A program made the position numbers and the translations under genes. A stretch of DNA of 64,000 nucleotides from Lytechinus pictus. Its lineage: Eukaryota. The stretch spans positions 10,046,001 through 10,110,000 of the forward strand of contig NC_087250.1 of assembly GCF_037042905.1 (NCBI RefSeq), in the 5' to 3' direction. Below, in pieces: positions 20,501 to 55,368 of this stretch. Positions within the stretch are counted from its first letter, which is position 1. Each line of letters opens with the position of its first letter. The notes beneath the pieces were generated by a model that saw only the letters and a program-made list of their open reading frames with translations, did not search any database and had not been told where the DNA came from.

Positions 20501-23500
20501 ACTTATCAATTAGAAATCACTTTAAAAAGGCTTTGCTCAACTTAATTTCTACAAAACACACAACTACTTCACACATTTGATAAATCTTTTTGCACCAAAA
20601 TGCAAATTTTTTACATAAAAGTGCCCTTTTGGGCTTTGACCTCCCCCCCCCCCCCCCCCGAAACAAAAATATTTTCTGCCACCCCTGTCCAAGAGAGTGG
20701 AGAAAGGCATACTTTGAGAATGGGCATGGCAGGATCAGATGACATTGGTAATAATTATTGCGATATAAATCGCCTAGAAAAATAATGTATTTCATGTACG
20801 AAGGTAACTATATTATAATTTTAATATTATGTCTAAATCTATCATGAAATTTTTTTTTTTACATGTACAAGGGTCAAAAATTTTGCTTGCTCACACCTTT
20901 TATACATCTTGCCCTGTGTGTCATGTATGCCGACTAAGCATTGTTGGCTCATTGTTCCATAAATCGGAAGTTTGAAATGCCTTGGCCTTGGCCTTGACCT
21001 TGACCTTGAGGTTTTCAGGTTTTGGCCTTGGCCTTGGATTTTCATGCCTTGGCCTTGGGTATTGAAGCCTTGGCCTTGGCCTTGGAGGTTTGGGCCTTGA
21101 CTACAACACTGGTTCTAGGCATGTCTTCATGAATATTCAATGAGCAATTAGATGATGTCATATCCCCATTTGTTCTTTTGTATTTTATTATATTAAATTA
21201 GGTTAATTCAAAAATGTTCCTCCAAGAACTACAAAGATTGGATTCACAACTGATTTAGTGCATTAGATATTCATTGCTGCAACTTTTTCCATTATAATGG
21301 AGACATACTATTCACACATGTATGAAATAATGAAACAATTAAGATTTCATGTAATGACGTAAGAAAGGGGAAAGTAGGGATGTGACATCATCAGTCAACC
21401 TAATGAATATTCATGACGACGTGCAAATCACTTTTTACAAAATATTGCTCAACTGTAAAATTCAATAAAGGGTATTGTGGTTTGCGATGCATCTCGAATA
21501 TTTTGTGGGCAAGTCGTTTTACTAAAACTACATTGTGTCTTATCGTGCCAAGTATCAGTCCCTAGTTCAAAGTTGATTTCTGATTTTATTCACTGAGTCT
21601 ACTTTAGTCCCGCCGTTCTCACTGCACCCATAAGATTGCATCCCTGAAATATGTAAATACCCTAAATGTCAGTCAGGAAATGATTTTCTACCACTGACAT
21701 TTTCTGACTGTTGTGGCCCCTTTAAACCGCGATTTGTCTTTAGGTCATCTTAGCAATTACTTCCCAGACGCCTTCCAATTTTTTCGTAAGACAACGTGCT
21801 GTCCGTCCTGCGACACTCACATTCGACAATGACCTCTAATCTTTCCATTGTGATTTGACTGTCATTTTCAGTACATTTTCAACGTTCCAAAAAGCGTCTG
21901 CGAAATGGATGCTAAAATACGCCATTAGATCAATAACGCACGGAACTGAGTGTGTGAGTGGAAATCCAGTACACGTGAGTTTTTTATTCTTCTTCTTCTT
22001 GTTATTATTATTAACGTTTTAACTGTAGATGGGTGGTTTAAAATTAGTGCACAGTGTGCACCAATTCAAGAACCCAAATTTTATTTCCGTAGGCCTATAC
22101 TTTTATACATAAGATCGTAAATGTATTATTTTTATAGGACATCGCAGAAAACTCGGGACTCTAAAAGTTATAAGCAATGGTAAAATTTGTGGTGCGTTCC
22201 TTCGATTTTACATTAGCACTGGTCATGTTTTCGGTCCACCTACTTTTGCGTCTTGTGACCAATCGCGATCCTTGAAATAATACATATTTTGTAAAGTGGC
22301 AGTGCCGTTCAAATCTGTTCAGAAGGACAAAATCGTGATACTCAGTATGGAATGGACTCCTGTCATGCCGAAGGCTCCACTTACCTGTCAATAACCCTCC
22401 ACATGCAATGCCGACTCCGCACATGAAGCTGTAAAGCGACAAGGCTATGTCAAAATTCGCCTCGTCAAAGACCGCTTTCTTGGACAGGCTGATATACACA
22501 TTGTCCTCGATGAAAAAGCAGAGCCCCTGTGTAAATGCCAGGACAGCCCGAATAGGATAATCGGAGCCGATGAAATCCAACAACAAGGAGACAGTACAGA
22601 TTGTACCTGCGATGATATACACGACTAAATCATTGGCGCCATGTTTGAGGAGGATCATGAGGACGGAGCGACCAATCACGCCAGCTATACCGCCGATTGT
22701 GGATAGATAGATAGCTCTGGGTGGAGGAATACCCAACTCCTCGGCATGGGAAACCAGAAACAGCATCCAGGCATAGATTATATAATTCATCAAGAACGCA
22801 ATCGGAATTGAAACAACGAAGATCCTTTCCTGGAGTAGTCCGTGACACAGAACCGCTGGCGCGTTTCGGGCAGGGACAGGCTCGCATTGGATCAACCGTC
22901 TTTTCTCTTGGCAGGTTTCTTTGCAATTCTCATCCTCTCGTTCCTCCCCCTGTGATTCCTCCTCCGTCTTCCCTTCCTCCTCCCAGTGAAGATGCATATC
23001 CGTCTCGTTCATCAATTCGCCATTTTCATTCCCACGCTTGTGTTTACTCTCCGCATTCCCATGGTTGTTGGATCCGCCAGTTCTGCTAGCATCTCCGTTG
23101 CCTACCGCCTTCCGAATCGCAGCGCCGCATACGAGTGTATGAAGTGTAATAGCACCGAGAATGAGGAAGGCACCTTCGTATCCATAAGCTTGAAGCGATT
23201 TTTCAATCACAATAGGCATCAACATAGAACCTAATGTGTAGCCATATGAAGTTAATGTGCTCCAAAAAACAAAATGTTCTTGAAAGGAGTCGTTCAGTGC
23301 GAGGTTTAATGGTGTGAAGGTCATTGAAAATCCAGCACCTGAAAAATAAAATGTTGATGAGGGTATTAATAATGATAGTATAATATAATTGATGATATAA
23401 TAATGATGATGCTAATAGTAAGAAGAAGAAGAAGAATATTGCTTAAAAATAAATAACATTAATGATAATGATAATAAATTATAATAATTACAATTATATT

Positions 23501-32129: not shown

Positions 32130-32271
32130 TATATTTGGAATCAGCATAACATTCTACACAAGATAGACCTTTAAAGGCAATCCCATTTAGAAGATATACG
32201 CTGAAGACCTCAAATTCCTGTCGATTTGCACAGTTTATTATGCAGAATTGCGCGAATGGTCAGTTATGTCA

Positions 32272-33553
32272 AAGTAAAAAATGATATCATGTTTTCTCTC
32301 GACTCATATAATGTAGTTTTTATGGTGCTGTTAGATTTATCTGCCGCGTTTGATACAATAGATCATAACATTTTCATATCTCGGTTATTCAATAGAATAG
32401 GCGTTAGGTCCAAAGTCTTATCCTGGTTCCAATCATACCTGTCTGGATGGACTTCGCAAGTTGATATTGATGGCACATTGTCAAATCCCATAACTCTAGA
32501 ATTTGGACTCCCTCAGGGGTCAATAGTCGGACCCATAGGCTACTCAATATATACTCTTCCAGTTGGTGATATCATCCGAAATCACTGTATCAATTATCAT
32601 TTTTATGCTGACGACATACAATTATACGTTTCTTTTGATCCGAAGACTCCTGGAGCTCTCAATAATGCACCGGTTAAACTCCAGAATTGTACATTGTATA
32701 TCAGATCACAGTGGATGATAGTGAATAAGCTAAAATTAAATGACAAAAAAACTTAATTTTTTGTTGCGGCCTCTACTTATAACTTGCGCAATCTTCCAAA
32801 TATTCAACTTGATGTTGATGGTACACTCAAAAAATACGAAACCTTGGTGTCATATTTGATTCCCGCATGTCAATGTCGTACCATATCTCTCATATCTGTA
32901 GCAAAGTCACTTTTTATTTAAGGAACATTTCTAGAATCAGAAGGTTCATTGACCAGTACGTCTGCCTGTCACAATGCTGTTCGTTCATTGGTTCTGTCTC
33001 GTATCGATTATTGCAATGGGCTCCTTTCTACAATTCCCTATAATCAATTAATTCGTATTCAACGACTACAAAATTGGGCAGCACGATTAATTTTACAGGT
33101 TTCCCGATATCATCCTTCCCAACCAATCTTTAATTCTCTTCACTGGCTTCCTTTTAAACAGAGAATTACGTTCAAATTACTCTTGATTGTCTACAAAACA
33201 CTGAATAAACAGGCTCCACAGTATTTAAGTAACTGCTTGAATCTGTATACACCAACTAGCTATAGAGCACTTAAGTCGGCCAGTGATCACCTTCGCCTTA
33301 CATATTCATTAACTCGTACATTAGCTGGTGACAGAACTTTAACGGTGTCGGCTTCAAAATCCTGGAACGACCTGCCACTAATAATTAGACAGTCTCCAAC
33401 ATTAGCAATTTTCAAAAAGTCATTAAAAACTCATCTCTTTCGTACTTTGTAGTTTTTAAAATATTACATTTAATTAATTCATTGTAAGCGCTTTGGGCCT
33501 AATGGGAAAAGCGCAGTACAAATAATAAGTAATAATAATAATAATAATAATAA
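32272..33553 (+). mobile_element. 5'-truncated L2/Crack-type (CR1 group) LINE, RT fragment with stops and frameshifts
   Basis: LLDLSAAFDTIDH, GLPQGSIVGP, FYADDIQLY, SRIDYCNGLL, LHWLP, FKKSLKTHLF; 3' stem-loop tgtaagcgcttt..aaagcgc; (TAA)n tail; AAAGTA at both junctions. Confidence 0.92.
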
Positions 33554-40959: not shown

Positions 40960-41954
40960 GTCAGTGGAAAAATACTTCTCCATAACCCCCCCCCCTTCTT
41001 TCATTCTCTTTTTCTTCTTTTTTTCTTTTGGGTTGGAACTGGGTTGGATTTGAACCTCTCGCCATCCATTCAATGATGGATTCATATGGATTCATGAATC
41101 ATGGATTCATTCATTCATATTCAATGATTGAATGAACAAGGTTGATTTTTCATTTAACCTTGTTGTTCACTGTTACTCTACTATTCCCTGTGTGTCAAAA
41201 TAATGTTGCCAATGTTTGGCCTATTTTCGGGGACAAATGCTTGATTTTTTTTACTGTCACTGTGATGTCAGTTTCCATTATTGCAACTATTCATCTAGAC
41301 AGCTGGCAGCCGTCTGTTTCGAGGAGTTTTTTACCTTTTTTTTTTTTTATTTTCTCCTCGTACACAGACGGCTCGCTAGCGTGCAGCCACCATTAGGGGA
41401 CTTGCAATGCAAAATCCCCCCGTCGGGGCTCTTCAATTTTTGTCTTTAATGAATAAAAATTTTGAAAATTAACGCGACCAAAATGCAAATTAATATTCCC
41501 TCTTGGCATTAATCGCCAAAAAACGGTGAAAAATCAAGTTAAAAGGAACAAAAACAGTGACTTACCTCGGCTGTCGCGCAAATTCACTTCCCCGTTTTAT
41601 CCGATCTTAAGTACATAAACATATTGCCATTGAGTCCCCTGTACAGATCGCGCTAGAACTTCGGTCTCTGTATTTTGGTGAGTGAAGCCAACGGAGTTCA
41701 GCTGAACAACCAACATAACAGAGACCGAAGCTTTTGGTCTACTATTCATCATATTTTAGTTTTTGGAACAACTGCAGAATACCCGGACACTGCGTTACCT
41801 TATCGTTGGAGAGCCAACGCACAATGATGTACTTAAGCTATCAAATCAGAAAATCAGCTATAATAAATAATTGAATGATTTACAACTTACAAGTATTTTT
41901 TGAATAGATTCTAAGTGTTCAGACTGCACTGTAACGCTAACGATGCGAGCGCGC

Positions 41955-43630
41955 GCGATTAGTATGTAGACCAACAGTGTCCGCGATGCCAACGATGTGT
42001 ATATTTTCGTAGTACGTGTAGGCCAACACAGTCCGCGATGCTAGCGGTGCGTTGGTGTCCGTAGTACAGGCCAACACTGCCCGCGATGCCAACGATCTAT
42101 ATATATATCTGTGTGCATCTGTAGTATGTAGGCCGACATTGCCCGCGATGCCAACGATGTGTATATTTTCGTAGTACGTGTAGGCCAACACAGTCCGCGA
42201 TGGTAGCGGTGTGTTGGTGTCTGTAGTCGGTACAGGCCAACACTGCCCTCGATGCCAACGATCTATATCTGTGTTCTGTAGTATGTAGACCAACAGTGTC
42301 CGCGATGCCAACGATGTGTATATTTCCGTAGTATGTGTAGACCAACATTGCCCGCGATGCCAACGATGTGTTGGTGTCTGTAGTACAGGCCAACATTGCC
42401 CTCGATGCCAACGATGCGATCATATCTGTAGTTGCCTATGTAAACCAACATTGCCCGCCATGGCAACGATGTGTTGGTGTCTGTAGTACATGCCAACAGT
42501 GCCCGCGATGCCAACGATGCGATCATATCTGTAGTTTCCTATGTAGACCAACATTGCCCGCGATGCCAACGATGTGTTGGTGTCTGTACTGTAGAGTACA
42601 GGCCAACATTGCCCTCGATGCCAACGATGTGAATGTATCTTTAGTAGGTATAGGCCAACAGCGCCCGCGATGCCAACGATGTGTTGGTGCCTGTAGTAGA
42701 TGCCAACAGTGCCAACGATGCCAACAATGTAAATGTATCTTTAGTACGTATAGGCCAACAGCGCCGGCCAGGATGCCAACGATGTGTTGGTGTCTGTAGT
42801 ATAGGCCAACCTTGCCCGCGATGCCAACGATGTGAATGTATCTTTTGTATGTATAGGCCAACGGCGCCCGCGATGCCAACGATGTGTTGGTGCCTGTAGT
42901 AGATGCCAACAGTGCCAACGATGCCAACAATGTAAATGTATCTTTAGTACGTATAGGCCAACAGCGCCGGCCAGGATGCCAACGATGTGTTGGTGTCTGT
43001 AGTACAGGCCAACCTTGCCATCGATGCCAATGATGTGAATGTATCTTTAGTAAGTATAGGCCAACTTTGCCGGCGATGCCAACGATGTGAACGTATGTTT
43101 AGTATGTATATACCAACAGCGCCCGCGATGCCAACGATGTGTTGGTGCCTGTAGTAGATGCCAACAGTGCCAACGATGTGAATGTATCTTACATAGGCCA
43201 ACATTGCCGGCGATGCCAACGATGTGAATATGCCTGTAGTAGAGGCCAACATTGCCGGCGATGCCAACGATGTGAATATGCCTGTAGTAGAGGCCAACAT
43301 TGCCGGCGATGCCAACGATGTGAATGTATCTTTAGTAAGTATAGGCCAACTTTGCCGGCGATGCCAACGATGTGAATGTATGTTTAGTATGTATATACCA
43401 ACAGCGCCCGCGATGCCAACGATGTGTTGGTGCCTGTAGTAGATGCCAACAGTGCCAACGATGTGAATGTATCTTACATAGGCCAACATTGCCGGCGATG
43501 CCAACGATGTGAATATGCCTGTTGTAGAGGCCAACATTGCCGGCGATGCCAACGATGTGAATATGCCTGTAGTAGAGGCCAACATTGCCGGCGATGCCAA
43601 CGATGTCAAGGTTTCTCTAGTACAGGCCAT
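41955..43630. repeat. Minisatellite array, ~40-bp unit (ggccaacattgcccgcgatgccaacgatgtg...)
   Basis: The core gatgccaacgatg recurs dozens of times; a 285-bp higher-order duplication is shown by ORFs 43139 and 43424. Confidence 0.95.
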
Positions 43631-45321
43631 CAGTGCCACCGATTCACCCTCATCATCACCATTTTCATCATCGACATTTCATCATTATAATCGTCACCAT
43701 CAAAATATCATCATTTTCATCTTTATCATCTTCAACTATTTATCATCATTATCATTGCTATTTTCATCAACTTCTCAATTATAATCATCATCATATTCAT
43801 CATCACATCTCAATCAAAATTAAACTGATTAAATCTTTGTGGAGCACAAAATGTATGACCATTCGGTAAAAGGGTCTGAAAATCAGACTTTTACTTAGGT
43901 GATTGCAATCCCTTAAATCGATTTAACCACTAATAGTCGTTATTTTCAACCCCCCCCCTCCCGTTTTTTAAATTGAAGTTCTAAAGTAGTGTTATCTTCA
44001 AATGCCGTTGGAATTTAACTTTTTCATTTGTTTGGCCTGCAAATGTGACATAGTACCTTTAAACCATTCAAAAATGAAAAATATCAGCCAGAAGAGGGAA
44101 AGAGAGAAAAGAAAAAAAAAGATTCCGACCGACCGACCGACCATGTTTTGGCACGTAAAGGACAATACGACATCTTTTTTTTTGGTAAGCTTCATCATCA
44201 ACAAATCATCATCTTTACTATCGTTAATTACCATCATCATAATATCATTTTCATTATCATCAACTTCATTATCATCATTCATTACTTCATGAACATCATT
44301 ATGTTGTTATTATGTACATCATCATCACTAGCATCATCATCGACATAACATCATCATCACTATCATCACCCTCATCATTGTCCAAAAAAAAATATCATTG
44401 TATAAATTTATTTTCCTAGCTGTGTGAATATCGACGGTAGCGTTCCGTTTGCTCTCTTAAACTCTCTAATTATCATGTAGACGCACAGGTGTTTCAGACA
44501 CTGCGGACCCTGGATGCATCGAATTCCTTTTTTTTAAATGGTAACGGCTTCAGGCCGCTGGTTATTTTACAGGCGAACTAGGGTTTTAATTCCTTTCAAT
44601 TCCCCCTTTTTTTCTTTGGTTTCGTTAGGACTATAGATAGGCAAATTTTATGTGTTTGGGAGAATGTGAGTTGTGATTATGATTATTGGAGGCGAGGCTT
44701 GACCGTAATAATTAAAGGGTCGAATTTGGTAGCGAAAGTACGTGGGAGAAGCTATTTGTCGTGATTGAAGAAAGACCTGTTGTGTCGCATTCCCATGACA
44801 ATGAGAGTGCGGGAAGTTTTTGGGCTTGCTGTTTGAGAGCGAGTGTTTTCCCCTTTTTATTGCTGTTTTTTGTCTCTGCTGTTGAGAGCGGAACGAGTAA
44901 ACGACCATCCTTCGGACACGATCCCTCCTGGAGGCAGGCAACGGTGTCTTAAATTTACATAATAACTGTAATTGTTCAATTAAGCTCAGCTCTCATTTTC
45001 ATCACATTTATGCCGACACTGTTTTATGCCGTATAGTAAATGGACGCTTGAGTTATTATTTAGTTGTTGCCTATGAATATCTTTTTAAAAGTAACTCATT
45101 TGGGATTTGTGTCATGTGAAACGACAAAATATGTGTAAAATATTGTTAACGTTCTTTTTCGTCAGACTCTGAAAGTCGGTCATGCTGTCAACGTTCAATA
45201 CATGTGAACTTATGTTGTATCTCGTTTCATTGTTTAATTAGAATTCACACTTTGAAACTACAATTCAAGTTTTGAGTGATTATTGTTATATATATATATA
45301 TATATATATATATTTCGCCAC

Positions 45322-45600: not shown

Positions 45601-46498
45601 TTTGCCACTAAGCCAACTATAATCCACGTGAGAATCATAATTATCAACAACATTATGATGATTATCTTATTGAGTATCAGTATGTCGATATCTTCTTCAT
45701 CATCATTATAAATCTATATCATCACTAGCTTCATCATCGAGAACATGATCAATCATCATCATCATCACTATCATCAACCACATTATGTCGTTATCATCTT
45801 CATCATCGTCTTCGTCATCATAATCGGTCTTATCGTCCCCATTATCACTAGTTTCATCATCAGTTGATCGTTTAATCGTCACCATCAAAATAATATAATT
45901 TTCAACTTTATTTTCATCATGAATTTCATTATTATCTTTATCATTCTTAATTTCATCATCAACATCTCAATCATAATCATCATCATATTCATCATCACAT
46001 CAAATCACAATTATCATCTTCATCATCATCAAATTCTGTATTATTAATAACTCATCTTCATTCTTAAATTTCGTCATATCTTTATTTTACGGTATAAAGA
46101 AACAAACAATTTTATTAATTTTGAACGATAGAACATCTTACATAAAATCAATCATCTTCAAACTTTTATTTACGAATCATCATGCTCGAAGTAGTACAAA
46201 TGCCAAAACAATATTTGTATATAAACAGAACTGGACCTCAAAAGGTGTTTTTCTCTAAATATGTTTGTAATATGGTTAAATTGCCTTTTACAAATAGAAG
46301 AATAAGTTATATCTACATCATCATCATCTTCTATATTGTTAATAACTCATCTTCTTCTTAAATTTTGTCATATCTTTATTTTACGTCGTAAAGAAACAAA
46401 CCATTTTATTAATTTTGAACGATTGAACATGTTACATAAAATCAATCATCTTCAAACTTGTATTTACGAATCATCATGCTTGATTTAGTACTACAAAT

Positions 46499-48202
46499 AG
46501 GAGTGGGCTATACATGGGTCAAAAATACTTTTTTTGTAATTTCAATATGACAACAGTTTTTTTTTTATTCCTTGTTATGTATCTCAACATGAAATGAGAA
46601 TATTTTTTGTCTCGGGTCCGAGAAAAAAGTGTGCCGGGCCAAAATCCAAAATGGCCGCCAAAACCCCCCAAAATCACAGTTTTGGCCACAATTTTTTTAT
46701 TTGGTGGTCAATTTCTCTGGTTTTGGTGTCTATTCATATGTTTTGGGGGGCAGGCAATTTGTTTTTCCTATAATTAGTACTTTCAAACCACTATTTGTAG
46801 AGTTAAAAGGTAATTATACCTAAATTTTCCCATTTTTGTAGCCTTTTTTCAGCCAAAAAGTAGGTTTTATCATTCTGGGGTTCTGGGATATTAGATGGTA
46901 CAAGGTCAACAATAGCAAGCAGCTTCATATAGCTATTTTTGCTTTTATTCCTCCACTTTGGGTTTTACGGATATTTGTGAAATATATCTTATTAAATAAA
47001 AAAAATGTCAATTATCCATTGGGGCTATACAGTATACAATGTACTGTACATACATACTGCACTGCATAAATGCATTGGCCACTATGACAGATAACAAGGC
47101 TTGTATAAACTATAGTGTCATAGAATTAAATGAGCTCTCAGGTTTAGAATTAGATGCCTCAGAAATTAAAGATATGTTTTGTCTCAGAAATTGAGGACAT
47201 GTTTTGTCAAATATGCTAATACAGGGGGCGGAGAGAGGTAATTTACACTGTAGCTATTCGGGGCCCCGTTGCGTACAAATTTACCATTATGTTAACTTAA
47301 CTTAATGGTAACTTGCATGCAATCCTTGATTCTGATTGGCTGTTGATCAGCGTTACCATGATACTAGTAGTTACCTGACCACATAAACATAGGCCAGTTA
47401 GACACCAGAACCAGGTAAAAAAAAGCCTCCAAATGAAGAAGATATGGCTAAAAATGTGATGTACGTATATGATATATACATGTATGTGATATTTAAGTGC
47501 AATTTACGTTGCTGGTTTCATCATGTACATCAGCTGACAAGGAATTAAATTCACAATCTAATTCTAAACCTTTGAAGCTCATTTCTATGACACTATAGTT
47601 TATATACAGGCCTTGTCATATGCCATGGTGGTCAATGCATGGATATATGCAGTGTAGTATGTACAGTGCATTGTACACCGTATAGCCCCTATGGGTAAAT
47701 GACATTTTCTTTTATTTGATAAGATATATTTCACAAATATCTGTAAAACCCAAAGTGGAGGAATAAAAGCAATATAGCTATATGAAGCTGCTTGCTATTG
47801 TTGACCTCGTACCATCTAATATCCCAGAACCCCAGGATGATAAAACCTACCACTTATCGGCTGAAAAAGGGCTACAAAAATTGGAAAATTTAGGTATAAA
47901 CACCTTTTAACTCTACAAATAATGGTTTAAAAGTACTAATTATAGGAAAAACAAATTGCCTGCCCCCCAAAACATATGAATAGACACTAAAACCAGAGAA
48001 ATTGACCACCAAATAAAAAAATTGTGGCCAAAACTGTGATTTTGGAGGGTTTTGGTGGCCATTTTGGATTTTGGCCCGGCACACTTTTTTCTCGGACCCG
48101 AGACAAAAAATATTGTCATTTCATGTTGAGATAAGGTAAAAGGAACACAAAAAAACTGTTCCCACAGTAAAACAAAAAATCACCCATTTATAGCCCACTC
48201 CT
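46499..48202. mobile_element. MULE-like non-autonomous element with ~650-bp TIRs
   Basis: AGGAGTGGGCTATA / TATAGCCCACTCCT; 9-bp TSD ACTACAAAT (46490-46498, 48203-48211); mirror ORFs 46629/47890. Confidence 0.85.
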
Positions 48203-48774
48203 ACTACAAATGCTAAAACAATATTTGTATATAAACAGAATTGGATTTCAAAAAAGGGTTTTTCTCTAAATATTTGTGTAATATGGTTAAATTTCCTTTT
48301 CAAGTAGAAGAATAAGTTTAATCAAACAAATGCGATTTTGCGAACAAATCAATCGTCCATGGGTTGGTTTATAAAAGAAAAAAATTTTATTACAAAAATG
48401 TTGATCAATTGTCCATGGGTTGGTAATCATAAAAGGCTTGTCGAAATATCTTTATCCACAAACGAAACTTGGCGAAATATCATTTGTTCTTGTTGTTATA
48501 TAACCCATAAAAAACAAACCAAATGTAGTCGAAATATATATTGTCCTTGCATTGATACATATATATTAAAAAAATATATATGAAATAAGAGTTCGCGAAA
48601 TGTATCGTCTTTGCTTTTGGACACAAAACAATAAACCAAATTATTAAAGGCATTTATCAACATAAATATAAATCGTCCATGGGTGCGATTATTAAACAAC
48701 AAAATGAATGTATTAACTGAACACTTCAGATAATTGTTGTTCTACTGTTTTCTTACAAGTATTTCAATAGAAAG

Positions 48775-50706
48775 TCAGTTAAACATATCCTCCGAACATT
48801 TTCCGCTTTCTACGAGTGCTCTCCTCATATTGTCTGTAATGCACGTTGGCAGCTTTCGCATGTAGGCCGCCCTGTATTCTTGCTTGGTGAGTGTGTCGAA
48901 GGCCTCCCAGTCGATGTTATCCGCATCTCTCTTGATGAAGACTTCTGACTTTTTGCTGTTCGAAGAACTGCGTACTGATGTGAGCTCTCCGGCCATCTTT
49001 AATTGGTCCAAGGCGTTCTTAAACTCCACGCTCCCGACGCTTCGCATCGCCCTACTGCACGTCGACTTAAATGATCGATAGGTTAACACAGGTCCAGGCG
49101 TCTTTATTACTGATGTAGCCACGCATGTAGGAGTCGGTTGTTCTTTGACGGGTGTTGTAGACGGAGTGGTGATGTCACGGAGTTCCTGTGATACCAAAAT
49201 CATGTAAAAAATGAGAAAATATATGTATTAATTTCGTGTATATACAACATTTTAAATTTGGAAGTCGAAAACAAATTACAATATGTAAATACGTAAGTGT
49301 ATGCAACATTATAATTATTTTATTTTTTGTGTGTATTAGTTTAAACTCTGAACGATGCTCATGCACGTTTTTTTTTTTATAATGATTATTCATTAAGAAG
49401 TATATGAACTTTAAATTATTGGTTTATTAACCATTACGTAGAAATAAATGTGTTAAATTTAATAATACAAATCGATTTTAATGCAAATTTTCTTAATAAT
49501 GTTGACTTAGTGCTGTATCTATTTATACAACATGTGACCAATTATATTGATGTATTGAAAGAAAAAAAAATCATAAACATATTAATTTTATATATATAGT
49601 ACGGTGGAATAACTTACAGTTAAGAATGTTTCTTTCTGGCTCTCTACATACTCCACGTATGCCAAGGCTGCATCGAGGCTCTCCTTCTCGATCTGTCGTG
49701 CCGGTGGAGTTGGTTGGATCCCTTCCAGGAAGTCGTTCAGCACTGAGGACAAGACGTGAATGGGCGCCGCGAGCCTTACCACCAAATCAATTTTTTTGGA
49801 TTGTGGAGGTGTTTGTCCGTCGACGATGGCCTGGTTTATACTTTCTATGTAATTTTCGTTAATCTTGTCCAATTCAGCTTCACAATTGTCCGCGAAGGTG
49901 TAGGATCCTCCTGTCTCGTGTAGACTTTCCACAACTTGCAGCACATGGGTTATGGAGGGTTTGTCCGTGATTCGTCGCCTGGCTTCTCGTGTGGCGCTGG
50001 GGGAAGGACGCAAACAGTCTGGTATGTGAACGATCAGGCGTTCTATAAACCCGTTGCCGACGTCTAGGGCGGTGAGGAGGTGAGCGGCTGGCCCCGGTTG
50101 GGTGGCTCCCAATATAGAAAAGGCACGTTCTGCGTCGATCTCACGCTTATTCTGCGTTGCATAAGTTGTGGACACCTTCTCTCCGCTGAAAATATGACAT
50201 AACGTAGCGATGTCCCCGCTTGCGTTTTCACCGTCGCTTTTTGCCATCTTAAGCAAAACATCATGGACCTCGCTGTTTATTAACATTCCATTACCCTGTG
50301 AAAGTCTTTGAAATAGCCCAGCGGACGTAGACTTTCCTATTATAAGGATATTGGCGTCATCGCGTGCGAGTGACATAGCGTGTAGCGGTTCCGTTGCTCC
50401 CACTTGTATTGCCTGGGACTTCCCGGTTGATGGTGGTCCAACGAACAGAACGTAGATATTCGCCTTTGTCGTCATCCCGTTGAACCTGATGTCGGACGTT
50501 TCGGAGATAACAAAAGCTGTAGTCGTCAGGACGCTGTCTACCAGGTACCCTTCGCATGTACTAATAGAAAGCGCTATGTCCTTAAAATAACTCCGTACAT
50601 GCTGTGGGAAAAGTTGTCCGTAATCAAACGGTGATGATCGAAGTCTGGCGTGCAAGTTTGACCATGTCAGAGAGTTCTGTTTAGCGACGGTTGTCATGCG
50701 AGACAT
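48775..50706 (-). CDS. DUF3987/YfjI-like P-loop (AAA+) NTPase; exons 50706-49618 and 49185-48775; 499 aa
   Basis: Walker A YVLFVGPPSTGKS, STSAGL, Walker-B-like MLINSE, FSILGATQP, GNGFIERL; phase-0 intron GTAAGT...CACAG (49617-49186); no stops; GC-richer than the flanks. Confidence 0.82.
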
Positions 50707-51284
50707 TATGATCGAAGATGCGATAAAATAATTATGTCCCGAAAAAAAAGTAATATTCTTCCCTTTCGGGAGCGGCTGTGAAATAATTTGTCCGTTGATA
50801 TTAAGGTACAATAAAAACCCTTTTTATCAAATAAGATTTCATTGACTCCTTTTATTTTTGCACTCAATGCATCAGATATAAATTTAGAAGGTAATATGTA
50901 CAATTGTAAAATATAACAAATTAATAATATTGTATTTTAAGCACTGGTTCAATAATATTTAAACACATATAGGCCTTTTACTTAATAAAGACAAAGACAA
51001 TTTAAAAGAATGCAACAGACCATGTTTGCCATCATGAGCGAATGGGCCTGATTTGGGGAAGCTGCTCGCATAAAAGTCACAACTCAAAATTTTAATAATT
51101 CTAATTTTTAATCTTTGATCTTTTTTTTCTTTAAATCTTCGGAATTATGTTATTGGGTAATGCAATTGGGCATACCATTCACCATTAACATAAATAGCAT
51201 TCATTAGGCACACACCACTAAGCCACAATTGCGTTACAATTATCCAACAACTATCCATTAATTATACCACTATATAGGTACATA

Positions 51285-51797
51285 CTACTGAGACACCATA
51301 TTGGGCATATGGTATACCATTGATACAAATCATACCATTACACATATACCACTGAGACTATTGGATACCACTGAGACACCATTGGGTATATGGTATACCA
51401 TTCACCATACCAATCATATCATTATAGAGGCACATACTACTGAGACACCATTGAATACCACTGAGACACCATTGGTATATGGTATACCATTCATCATACC
51501 AATCATACCATTAGAGGCACATACTACTGAGAGTCTGAGACACCATTGTATACCACTGAGACACCATTGGGTATGGTATACCATTAATCATACCAATCAT
51601 ACCATTAGAGGCACATACTACTGAGACACCATTGTATACCACTGAGATACCATTGGTATATGGTATACCATTCACCATACAAATCATACCATTAGAGGCA
51701 CATACTACTGAGACACCATTGAATACCACTGAGACACCATTGGGTATATGGTATACCATTCATCATACCAATCATACCATTAGAGGCACATACTACT
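51285..51797. repeat. Tandem array of ~85-90-bp units containing the palindrome ATGGTATACCAT
   Basis: Repeated catactactgagacaccatt..accactgagacaccatt..atggtataccatt. Confidence 0.9.
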
Positions 51798-51860
51798 GCT
51801 ACGTACAGTCAACTCACCAAAATGAATGAAAACAATTTACAGCCATTACACTACTTTCCA

Positions 51861-52600
51861 CTTTTCAATAGAGGGCGCTATTCATTAAGCTAATTTTCAC
51901 CGATGCGTAAGAAAAACATTAGAATTATGGAAGATGATACCATAAGCAAACCCTGAAAATATGAGACCAAATTGAATGAAAAAGAGGAATTAAATATGGC
52001 AAGTTTGCATTTTGCAACTTTTCAATAGAGGGCGCTATTCATTAAGGTGATGGTCACTGATGCGAAAAACCCGTTTGAATTGTGAGGGATGATACCCTAG
52101 GCAAACCCTGAAAATATGAGACCAAAATAATTAAAAACAAGTTATGGCCATTTTACTATTTTCAACTTTTCAATAGAGGGCACTCTTTCTAAAGATAATG
52201 GTCACTGACGCGTAACAAACCATTGAATTATGAAGGATGTAGTCATAATTAGTAAGCTCAGAAAACATGAGACCAAAATGGATGAAAACGAGGAAGTTAT
52301 GGCAAGTTGCCCTTTTTCAATAGAGGGTGCTATTGATAGTAAGGTCTTGTTCACTGATGCGTAAAAACCGTTCGATTTATGATGGATGATACCATAGGCA
52401 AACTCTGCAAATATGAGACCGGAATAATTGAAACAAGGAAGTTATGGCCACTTTAGTATTTTCGACTTTTAAATCGAGGGTGCTAGATCTTAACTTAATG
52501 ATCACTGATGCGAGCTAAAATGTTGAGGGATGGCATGATTAGTAAACCCTGAAAATATAAAACGAAAATGCAAACAAACTTAAGGAAGTTATGGCCATTT
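51861..52600. repeat. Five ~150-bp tandem units (ttttcaatagagggcgct...gaagttatggc)
   Basis: Unit starts at ~51861, 52018, 52166, 52313, 52467. Confidence 0.9.
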
Positions 52601-53915: not shown

Positions 53916-54431
53916 AATTTATTATCATCATCAATATCATCTTCTTCATCATCATTTTCATCATTATTGTAGTTATTATCATTATTTTTTATCATTTTAC
54001 GTATTACTTCTGATGACAAAAATAACGATAAATTCAATTCGGATAATACTACTCCTTCTTTCCCGTATATGTTTCTTTCAGAAGAAGGACATGTTCATCA
54101 AATGACTAAAATACTTGAAAGGATGAATGTTTGCAATGATGTCGATGACCAAGGCGATTAGGAAGCTTTACCTGACTTCAGCACCACAGACTTCTCATAG
54201 ATGAAACTGCTGGAATTTATATTTTGAACAAGGAAGACGAACACATTGACTTGTTATTAACAACTTTCAGTTGATATCTACGAAACAAAGTTCTCAACTG
54301 AGCTTTACATATTGAACGATAGGGCCAATACCTGATCGTCGTGATGATAACCATAACCTGCACTACCAACGTTTTTTAAAGAGACTGAAAGCAAAACCTG
54401 CGAAAAGAAAATGCCTAGCGAAAGTTATTTA

Positions 54432-55368
54432 GCAAAAACTATCTTCTTTGGCGTTCAATTGTTTCTGCTATTCCACAGACAGTTAAAGCTCGTTGTTTCG
54501 AGAGGCGACATCTGTTAAAAAAGTTAGATATTTGTATAGTTTTTGGTAATAAAAAAATATTTATATCAAAATTGTCAACCAAGATCATAAATATGATATT
54601 AAAAGAAGATAAATACCAAACCCCTACTTCTGAAATATATTGGAGATCAAGGTATGATATAAGTGAAGATGATTTTAGTTTTATTTACGAGTTGCCTTTT
54701 AAAGTTATTCCAGATACAAGAACAAGAATATTTCAATATAAAATGAATACAAGATGCTTACTAGTAAATGCAAAGTTAAAGAAAATGAAAGTTGTAGATA
54801 ATGAGATGTGTTCTTTTTGTAAACAAGAACAGGAAACAATTGAACACCTGTTGGTAGAATGTTCGCATACTCGAGATTTTTGGAATGAATTTCTAAGATG
54901 GTGGCATACTAAATTTAAAAAAGAAATTATCCAAGTAAAGGATGAAGAGATTTTATTCGGAATTAAAAACAAGCAAGATGTGTTATTGAATCATTGCCTT
55001 ATTGTAGCAAAGAAAACTTTATATCTGTGTAGATATATTAATATCCTTCCTTGTTTTGACTTGTTTACCAGTAAATTAAAACAAGTGTACCAAACAGAAA
55101 AGTGTATTGCTTACAGGGACTCTACTATGTATAGATTTTTAAAAAAATGGAGTCTATTAGATTTTGGGTAATGTAGACGAACAGACCTATATTGCTTCTC
55201 TATGTTTCTTTTATTTTCCCTTTGTTGTTTTTGTTTTGTATGTATTTTTTTTATCAAAATGTAACCTATCCATACTGTACATTGTTATTTTATATGGTTA
55301 TCAAACTTGTTTTTGTAATATGTGTATGAGATGGTTATACTAAACAAACAAAAAAAAAAAAAAAAAAA
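54432..55368 (+). mobile_element. 5'-truncated L1/Tx1-clade LINE (ORF2 C-terminus, 3'UTR, poly(A))
   Basis: SAIP...FQYKMNTRCL...CSFCKQEQETIEHLLVECSHTRDFW...FLKKW; poly(A) at 55350-55368; TTAG at both junctions. Confidence 0.9.

Follow-up and report, generated by a model that had tools for sequence, protein, structure and literature searches.

The window analysed here, 64,000 nucleotides of the sea urchin Lytechinus pictus (positions 10,046,001 to 10,110,000 of contig NC_087250.1, assembly GCF_037042905.1), carries on its minus strand an intact two-exon gene for a DUF3987-type AAA+ ATPase, which we relate below to a second gene found in DNA transposons of the Merlin/IS1595 type. All coordinates are positions within this window. 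Read directly from the letters, the gene begins with an ATG at 50706 and encodes 499 amino acids (aa). Exon 1 (50706..49618, 363 codons) specifies a short N-terminal helical part and an MCM-like AAA+ core (DUF3987), and exon 2 (49185..48775) contributes 136 codons and a TGA stop codon at 48777-48775. Between them lies a phase-0 intron of 432 nt (49617..49186) with GT at 49617-49616 and AG at 49187-49186; its 5' end reads GTAAGT and its 3' end is a CAG reaching 49186. An intron of this length leaves no room for a transposase gene. A first-pass annotation, made from the sequence alone, had proposed exactly this structure, and the four motifs that it named are all present on the minus strand: Walker A GPPSTGKS (50439..50416, aa 90-97), a Walker B-like strand MLINSE (50286..50269, aa 141-146) in which INSE has Ser in place of Asp and the Glu is kept, a sensor-1-like ILGATQP (50115..50095, aa 198-204) and an Arg-finger-like GFIERL (50052..50035, aa 219-224). 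Its description of the gene as richer in guanine and cytosine than its flanks (0.44-0.51 in the exons vs 0.28-0.35) and as surrounded by repeats is likewise accurate, with tandem arrays at 51282-52512 and 41967-43637 and a foldback at 46480-48221.

The assignment to the DUF3987/AAA+ NTPases is borne out by three resources. Exon 1 matches Pfam DUF3987 (PF13148) over aa 121-357 with 68.5 bits against a cut-off of 27 (expectation value, E, 7.7e-19), matches seven PHROG families named DNA helicase, DNA primase or ATPase (best E 9.2e-12) and falls among DUF3987 clusters in the ESM Atlas. Matches to Pfam MCM (PF00493; 12.7 bits vs 23.3) and to Pfam AAA are sub-threshold, and the Pfam scan of the protein found no primase-type domain or PriCT.

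A word-indexed protein search returned 20 relatives. The closest, P0001, shares 79% identity with the window protein; the second-best, P0002, is a Lytechinus pictus gene model of 502 aa (73% identity), and Holothuria leucospilota appears among the weaker matches. P0002 spans the predicted junction (…QKETFLT|ELRD…) unbroken, its ungapped alignment to exon 2 covering 132 aa at 58% identity, and P0007 is likewise continuous over it (46% identity to exon 2 across 121 aa); this continuity in both proteins supports the splice junction. Many gene calls made without splicing end a few residues past the junction point with V-S or similar, which is a reading of the GT of the intron. With exon 2 alone as query the word-indexed search found nothing at near or longer lengths, and since direct BLASTP gives clear exon-2 relatives these blanks are search failures. 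By sequence, the PDB gave chance-level matches only (E > 0.3). The frame of the urchin-like P0007 runs on for its C-terminal 170 aa, beyond the winged-helix domain described below, into a repetitive peptide (…VDGRWSMVVGF…), as expected from translating a tandem array directly downstream of the gene.

An exhaustive protein search extended the family to 421 clusters at E <= 1e-3, 200 of them at E <= 1e-10. Their members include the sea star Patiria miniata and the sea cucumber Holothuria leucospilota among echinoderms, four Acropora species, Orbicella faveolata and Nematostella vectensis among corals and anemones, Hydractinia symbiolongicarpus with at least five loci, and a 'Seg…' transcript set from a eukaryote protein collection. 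Nine of ten relatives scanned with Pfam match DUF3987, the exception being P0019, which matches Helicase_C only. P0019 (238 aa) fuses a Helicase_C fragment with a 64%-identical DUF3987 piece and is probably a chimeric call over a broken copy.

The fold was examined by structure prediction. An AlphaFold model of P0002 from 29 aligned rows has a mean predicted local distance difference test score (pLDDT) of 88.8 and a predicted template modelling score (pTM) of 0.81. Every PDB match listed by Foldseek for this model is an MCM2-7, MCM8/9 or archaeal MCM chain (E 1e-7 to 1.6e-5; 11-17% identity). The part of the model before the ATPase core consists only of helices, with no MCM N-terminal oligonucleotide/oligosaccharide-binding (OB) fold domain. 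In the viral structure library BFVD, the named matches are mostly phage DUF3987, primase and helicase proteins (best E 9e-15). These matches to MCM and to phage DUF3987 folds agree with PMC4889955, which describes phage helicases of superfamily 6 (SF6) as distantly MCM-related and as bearing a winged helix-turn-helix at the C terminus. The window's exon 2, modelled from 16 rows (pLDDT 92.3), has the order H-E-H-H-H-E-E (H, helix; E, strand), that is, three helices after the first strand, the middle one short. Foldseek found no PDB match for it at E 1e-3; DNA-binding proteins of the winged-helix class, among them PadR, Pex, MarR, Rpc34 and Vps25, make up most of the top 50 VIA-align matches, with Z scores of 7.1-5.5, a middling range that supports a winged helix, at fold-class level only, for exon-2 residues 19-85 (49131..48931, minus strand). 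The first-pass annotation had raised this possibility for exon 2.

In the 29-row alignment, at least 90% of rows conserve K96 and R223. No echinoderm, coral or hydrozoan row retains the Walker B Asp, which gives way to S, P, G, T, N or A, and all of them have the Glu; D-E occurs only in P0139 and in P0153 from Nematostella vectensis. These two proteins with the canonical Walker B form a long-branch sister group of the family.

Relatives of the gene lie within complete transposons. A metagenome scan with a 12-row alignment revealed 66 loci encoding relatives about 40% identical to the window's exon 1; the same scan with a single protein as query gave no locus. When the longer contigs were compared all against all they fell into subfamilies whose members are 97-99.9% identical over 4-5 kb, and all members of a subfamily lose similarity at one left-hand base, beyond which their flanks differ (about 5 distinct left flanks in 6 contigs, 4 in 4 and 4 in 6 for three subfamilies). 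The left end of the elements reads GGCTTAACTGCAGAATACCCTGCCAC (in one subfamily, GGCTAAATTGCAGAATACCCAGGGAC); the right end, GGAGTAACTGCAGAATACCCTGCCAC, is the reverse complement of the left repeat and is found downstream in six contigs. These six contain both terminal repeats and define units of 4.3-5.4 kb bounded by 26-nt inverted repeats with GG as first bases; one of the six, L021, has a right repeat whose outer part is different. L017 carries, 86 nt beyond its left end, a further site resembling the terminal repeat (L017:2046 and L017:2132), which suggests insertion beside or into another such element.

Between the left repeat and the DUF3987 gene (ORF2 hereafter, for the second open reading frame, ORF, of the element) lies, on the opposite strand, a transposase ORF of 339-353 aa. 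It is present upstream of ORF2 and divergent from it in 31 of the 33 loci that have at least 1500 nt upstream of exon 1, the 31 representing roughly ten sequence lineages rather than 31 independent observations; the two loci without it are L062, a degenerate copy, and L063. All five transposases tested match Pfam DDE_Tnp_IS1595 (PF12762; E 1e-20 to 6e-24), and the two compared with the NCBIfam IS1595 family transposase model (NF033547) score 98 and 88 bits against a cut-off of 75. The earlier view that the gene stands apart from standard transposases is not supported, given that its relatives adjoin a standard IS1595/Merlin DDE transposase. No primase, polymerase or capsid gene is found in these 4-5-kb elements. 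The terminal repeat lies about 0.6-0.9 kb from the ORF2 stop codon, and tandem arrays are located just inside the terminal repeats in two of three elements checked (L019 and L006, with none in L014).

Both element genes are under purifying selection between subfamilies. Synonymous divergence (dS) is saturated; non-synonymous divergence (dN) spans 0.08-0.39 for the transposase and 0.14-0.6 for ORF2, the latter range leaving out pairs with L023, which lie at 0.8-1.2 and are suspected of a frame problem. The dN/dS ratio, computable for three between-subfamily pairs, is 0.04-0.26. The ORF2 proteins P0216 of Orbicella faveolata and P0211 of Acropora digitifera are 93% identical over 311 aa and share one 90% cluster. 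These are distantly related stony corals, and such identity suggests horizontal spread of the element among corals.

Five of six transposon copies examined have an intron at exactly the window's position (…QKExxxE|GTAAG…), so splicing is a trait of the transposon gene; the sixth, L027, is an intronless, continuous ORF of 500 aa. Exons 1 and 2 are contiguous without an intron in L026/L027 and in L034, and both intron-bearing and intronless lineages therefore exist. The near-identical transposon copies carry S-P-E at the Walker B position, and since these copies have evidently been active recently, the Walker B deviation is compatible with the protein's role. Since the whole transposon-borne family shows both the intron and the deviant Walker B, neither is a sign of host-gene status or of decay. 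A Holothuria leucospilota gene model, P0169 (838 aa), joins ORF2 exon 1, an IS1595-type transposase 55% identical to that of the coral-type L027, and the C-terminal domain. Its transposase sits between ORF2 exon 1 and the exon for the winged helix, on the same strand, in contrast to the divergent layout of the coral-type elements, and this is either a different element arrangement or a nested insertion merged by the gene caller.

In the window itself, one site resembles a terminal inverted repeat (TIR). The sequence GGAACAACTGCAGAATACCCGGACAC at 41765..41790 (plus strand) matches, with two mismatches, an IUPAC pattern derived from the metagenome repeats only; no other window site matches with three or fewer, and none of 100 shuffled windows matches. 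The site is oriented as the right end of an element with a minus-strand ORF2 would be, with its outer GG on the low-coordinate side, and about 180 nt inside it begins a 1.7-kb block of tandem arrays with 48-52-nt units (41967..43637). Between this block and the gene lies a segment of about 2 kb with long inverted repeats (46240..48249), whose foldback arms at 46558-46861 and 47852-48155 are 94% complementary. A 30-nt direct repeat marks its bounds (46210-46239 and 48220-48249, 27/30 identical). A contig of another individual lacks the segment and runs from 46239 straight into 48251; the segment resembles a polymorphic insertion of the foldback type, made later between the gene and the TIR-like site. 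On the other side of the gene, contigs of two other runs stop resembling the window at 50756..50757, 50 nt upstream of the ATG. The two runs come from different studies and their contigs carry the same alternative sequence for more than 1 kb upstream of 50756, a sequence found nowhere in the window. One of the two haplotypes is therefore rearranged exactly where the promoter region and the transposase are expected. We found no close bracketing of the gene by inverted or direct repeats and no second DUF3987 fragment in the 64-kb window.

Elsewhere in the window lie a large exon of a major facilitator superfamily (MFS) transporter (MFS_1, E 3.9e-15; 22164-23411, minus strand) and three fragments of non-long terminal repeat (non-LTR) retrotransposons (RVT_1 and, twice, zf-RVT; 32205-32753, 2-619 and 54419-55168, all plus strand).

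In a maximum-likelihood tree, the window copy groups with P0001 and the Lytechinus protein (support 100/99). This trio is nested inside an urchin clade (99/100) and that clade inside one of echinoderms (96/97), whose sister group is the coral transposon copies; overall, the family tree roughly tracks animal groups. Of 46 alignment columns with 85% conservation or more among non-urchin relatives, the window protein retains 41, and the five changes are S to A, K to Q, D to E, F to L and A to C. Compared with contigs of other individuals the gene shows six coding differences in five codons, four of them changing the amino acid (M111I, I120S, P204Q and S490I) and one silent. Transcription was gauged from about 6% of each of two RNA runs, which placed four and six reads on the 3-kb stretch that includes the gene; some are intronic, and all have one library orientation. 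Among the reads and contigs from runs compared with the window, none was listed with a spliced joint across the intron. The X1 contigs cover the whole intron and the X2 contigs part of it, as DNA or unspliced RNA would. Of the 31-mers of the stretch, 54% and 22% recur in contigs labelled as two other organisms, and no RNA run is listed among those that share its 31-mers.

Taken together, these data make it very probable that the gene derives from a transposon family of the Merlin/IS1595 type. With about even confidence we go one step further and read it as a copy of ORF2, the helper-ATPase gene of a two-gene transposon, that has no transposase beside it and still belongs to the economy of the transposon. 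Several observations weigh against this reading. Neither tblastn nor a six-frame profile search found a transposase remnant in the 64-kb window (the sole hit of the profile search is exon 2 itself, through the P0169 part of the profile), and a 26-mer search allowing up to seven mismatches found no second terminal repeat there. The TIR-like site lies 7.0 kb from the stop codon as against 0.6-0.9 kb in the full elements and may, given this distance, belong to another element; part of the gap is accounted for by the later insertion of the 2-kb foldback DNA. The full elements themselves derive from coral-like DNA, and P0169 is the sole echinoderm gene model that ties ORF2 to a transposase. No target-site duplication was seen in the five contigs with both ends intact (L003, L006, L014, L017 and L019), though metagenome assemblies from short reads may mispair the flanks of repeats that exist in many copies. 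Finally, the four-to-one ratio of non-synonymous to silent differences within the species fits relaxed constraint (n = 5, too few sites to separate it from neutrality), and with the Walker B Asp missing, ATP hydrolysis is no more than putative.

Much of the same evidence can be turned toward domestication, which the first-pass annotation had already raised and which we consider possible, if rather doubtful. ORF2 would then have been captured by sea urchins and kept as a host gene after loss of the transposase, perhaps as a motor in repair, replication or genome defence. An intact ORF in 64 kb of transposase-free DNA would be expected of such a gene, as would retention of the 41 family-conserved columns, the tight clade that the window copy forms with P0001 and the Lytechinus model, the presence of the 31-mers in the two contig sets labelled as other organisms, and the few RNA reads on the gene. 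The within-species differences, four replacements to one silent change, point the other way, as do flanks that differ structurally between individuals and a nearby TIR-like site with tandem arrays that resemble the remains of an element; several further urchin-like proteins, at 54-75% identity, could be paralogues.

Less likely still is that the gene is a dead relic, the remnant of a decayed element whose ORF2 happens not to be broken yet and has no present function. The missing transposase and left end, the later insertions within the presumed element, the excess of non-synonymous allelic changes and the very few RNA reads, some of them intronic, all suit a relic. Against it, 1,500 coding bases remain open over two exons with intact splice sites, the catalytic-type residues are all kept, and long neutral decay is hard to reconcile with an intact Lytechinus counterpart at 73% identity whose exon 2 aligns without gaps. 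That the gene serves an integrated virus-like element as its replicative helicase, or came by recent transfer out of a phage or bacterium, is highly improbable: DUF3987 proteins are helicases of phages and mobile elements (PMC4889955 and PMC11724360) and the named BFVD matches are mostly phage proteins, but no match at E 1e-3 turned up when exon 1 was run by tblastn against 50,697 phage records, viral contigs yielded no locus to a single protein and two weak loci to an alignment query (6e-5 and 4e-4), the relatives reside in DDE transposons free of primase, polymerase and capsid genes, the intron is old and common to the family, and the tree roughly follows animal groups. The first-pass idea of an uncharacterised mobile or virus-like eukaryotic element therefore survives, through the transposon context of the metagenome loci, in its mobile-element half, and is dropped in its virus-like half together with recent phage transfer.

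How do these elements compare with known systems? Among the closest are the eukaryotic Merlin superfamily and the bacterial IS1595 family (Feschotte 2004, in the summary given by PMC8101967). PMC8101967 defines Merlin elements by a DDE_Tnp_IS1595 domain, inverted repeats of 24-462 bp starting with GG and target duplications of 8-9 bp, and gives bacterial members of the IS1595 family a single transposase gene; the words helicase and ATPase are absent from the text of PMC8101967. The full elements described here share with Merlin the transposase domain, repeats of about 26 nt starting 5'-GG and animal hosts. They differ in carrying a second, conserved and intron-bearing gene for an MCM-like ATPase. 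The typical 8-9-bp duplication was not seen in the five intact-ended contigs, whose metagenome flanks may be mispaired, and we do not weigh its absence against a Merlin assignment; the window copy differs further in having no transposase and only one TIR-like site (41765-41790).

With the DUF3987 helicases of phages and mobile elements the window protein shares the Pfam family, Walker A, the Arg-finger region, a C-terminal winged helix and residence in mobile elements, although its identity to the phage proteins is too low for BLAST. This SF6/DUF3987 type of helicase is, according to PMC4889955, not found in eukaryotic viruses. AgaPH, described in PMC11724360 as a PriCT-DUF3987 protein with 5'-3' helicase activity, represents a type from which the window protein departs in several respects: it has neither PriCT nor a linked primase, its Walker B reads S-E instead of D-E-x-x, the partner in the related elements is a DDE transposase and not a primase-polymerase, and the host is an animal. 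MCM2-7 and archaeal MCM provide the nearest solved folds to the predicted AAA+ core and winged helix, but the absence of the N-terminal OB-fold and the sub-threshold Pfam score make this a resemblance in fold only.

IS21 (IstA/IstB), phage Mu (MuA/MuB) and Tn7 (TnsB/TnsC) each pair a DDE transposase with an AAA+ helper. The elements described here resemble them in encoding a transposase and a separate ATPase between inverted repeats, and this layout makes a helper or regulator role of ORF2 plausible. The helpers of IS21, Mu and Tn7 belong to other AAA+ clades (DnaC-like or initiator-like) and are not MCM-like. Among eukaryotic elements, AcademH (Kojima, 2020) is said to consist of helicase-encoding Academ DDE transposons from animals and fungi; it would be alike as a eukaryotic DDE transposon lineage with a helicase and unlike in belonging to another transposase superfamily.

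We propose the following model, in which a full element consists of an IS1595-family DDE transposase gene and ORF2, transcribed divergently between 26-nt inverted repeats that start with GG, with an ORF2 product made up of an MCM-like AAA+ ATPase followed by a winged-helix domain. Beyond fold, family, conserved motifs, linkage with the transposase and purifying selection, which the data show, we infer that the product forms a ring-shaped, ATP-driven motor that acts on DNA and aids transposition. ATP would be bound at K96, R223 of the neighbouring subunit would complete the site, and a beta-hairpin preceding sensor 1 would touch DNA. The winged helix may bind element DNA, for instance the subterminal repeats, or the transposase; a specific protein-DNA contact is plausible given the winged helix and the subterminal arrays. 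The motor could thereby assist the transposase by unwinding or remodelling DNA at the element ends or at the target. Two modes seem about equally likely. In the first, ORF2 would unwind or remodel the element ends, possibly coupling transposition to copying of the element, much as its prokaryotic relatives act in replication of their elements; the replication-helicase role put forward in the first-pass annotation is putative. In the second, it would select targets or regulate the transposase, like MuB, TnsC or IstB. With the Walker B Asp missing, it is conceivable that hydrolysis is slow and the role switch-like. The window copy keeps ORF2 intact and, probably, the element's right end (41765-41790). 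Having neither transposase nor left end it is not mobile on its own, but it may supply ORF2 protein in trans to sister elements.

What is new here is the second gene in Merlin-type elements. The literature searched yielded no description of a transposase paired with a DUF3987 gene, though such elements may have been catalogued earlier in Repbase, and the papers searched that mention DUF3987 include, by title and abstract, none on eukaryotic transposons. That literature treats Merlin-type elements as carrying a transposase alone, and the finding connects them with the DUF3987/SF6 helicases. The elements represent a family of animal DDE transposons, recently active in coral-like genomes, whose conserved second gene has an intron and encodes an MCM-like ATPase. 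They give context to the gene models labelled 'uncharacterized protein' or 'DUF3987 domain-containing' in corals, hydrozoans, sea stars, sea cucumbers and sea urchins, and genome annotation should mask these genes or mark them as belonging to transposons. In echinoids they offer a candidate case of domestication, and more broadly a testable eukaryotic counterpart to the bacterial systems of transposase and AAA+ helper. In the boldest version, which we put forward tentatively, a Merlin/IS1595-type DDE transposon lineage of cnidarians and echinoderms would encode its own MCM-like ring helicase, coupling transposition to DNA unwinding or to replication of the element, or using it for target choice as MuB, TnsC and IstB do in bacteria, and sea urchins would keep a transposase-free motor for their own use. 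If this is true, it would constitute a mechanistic class not described for eukaryotic DDE transposons.

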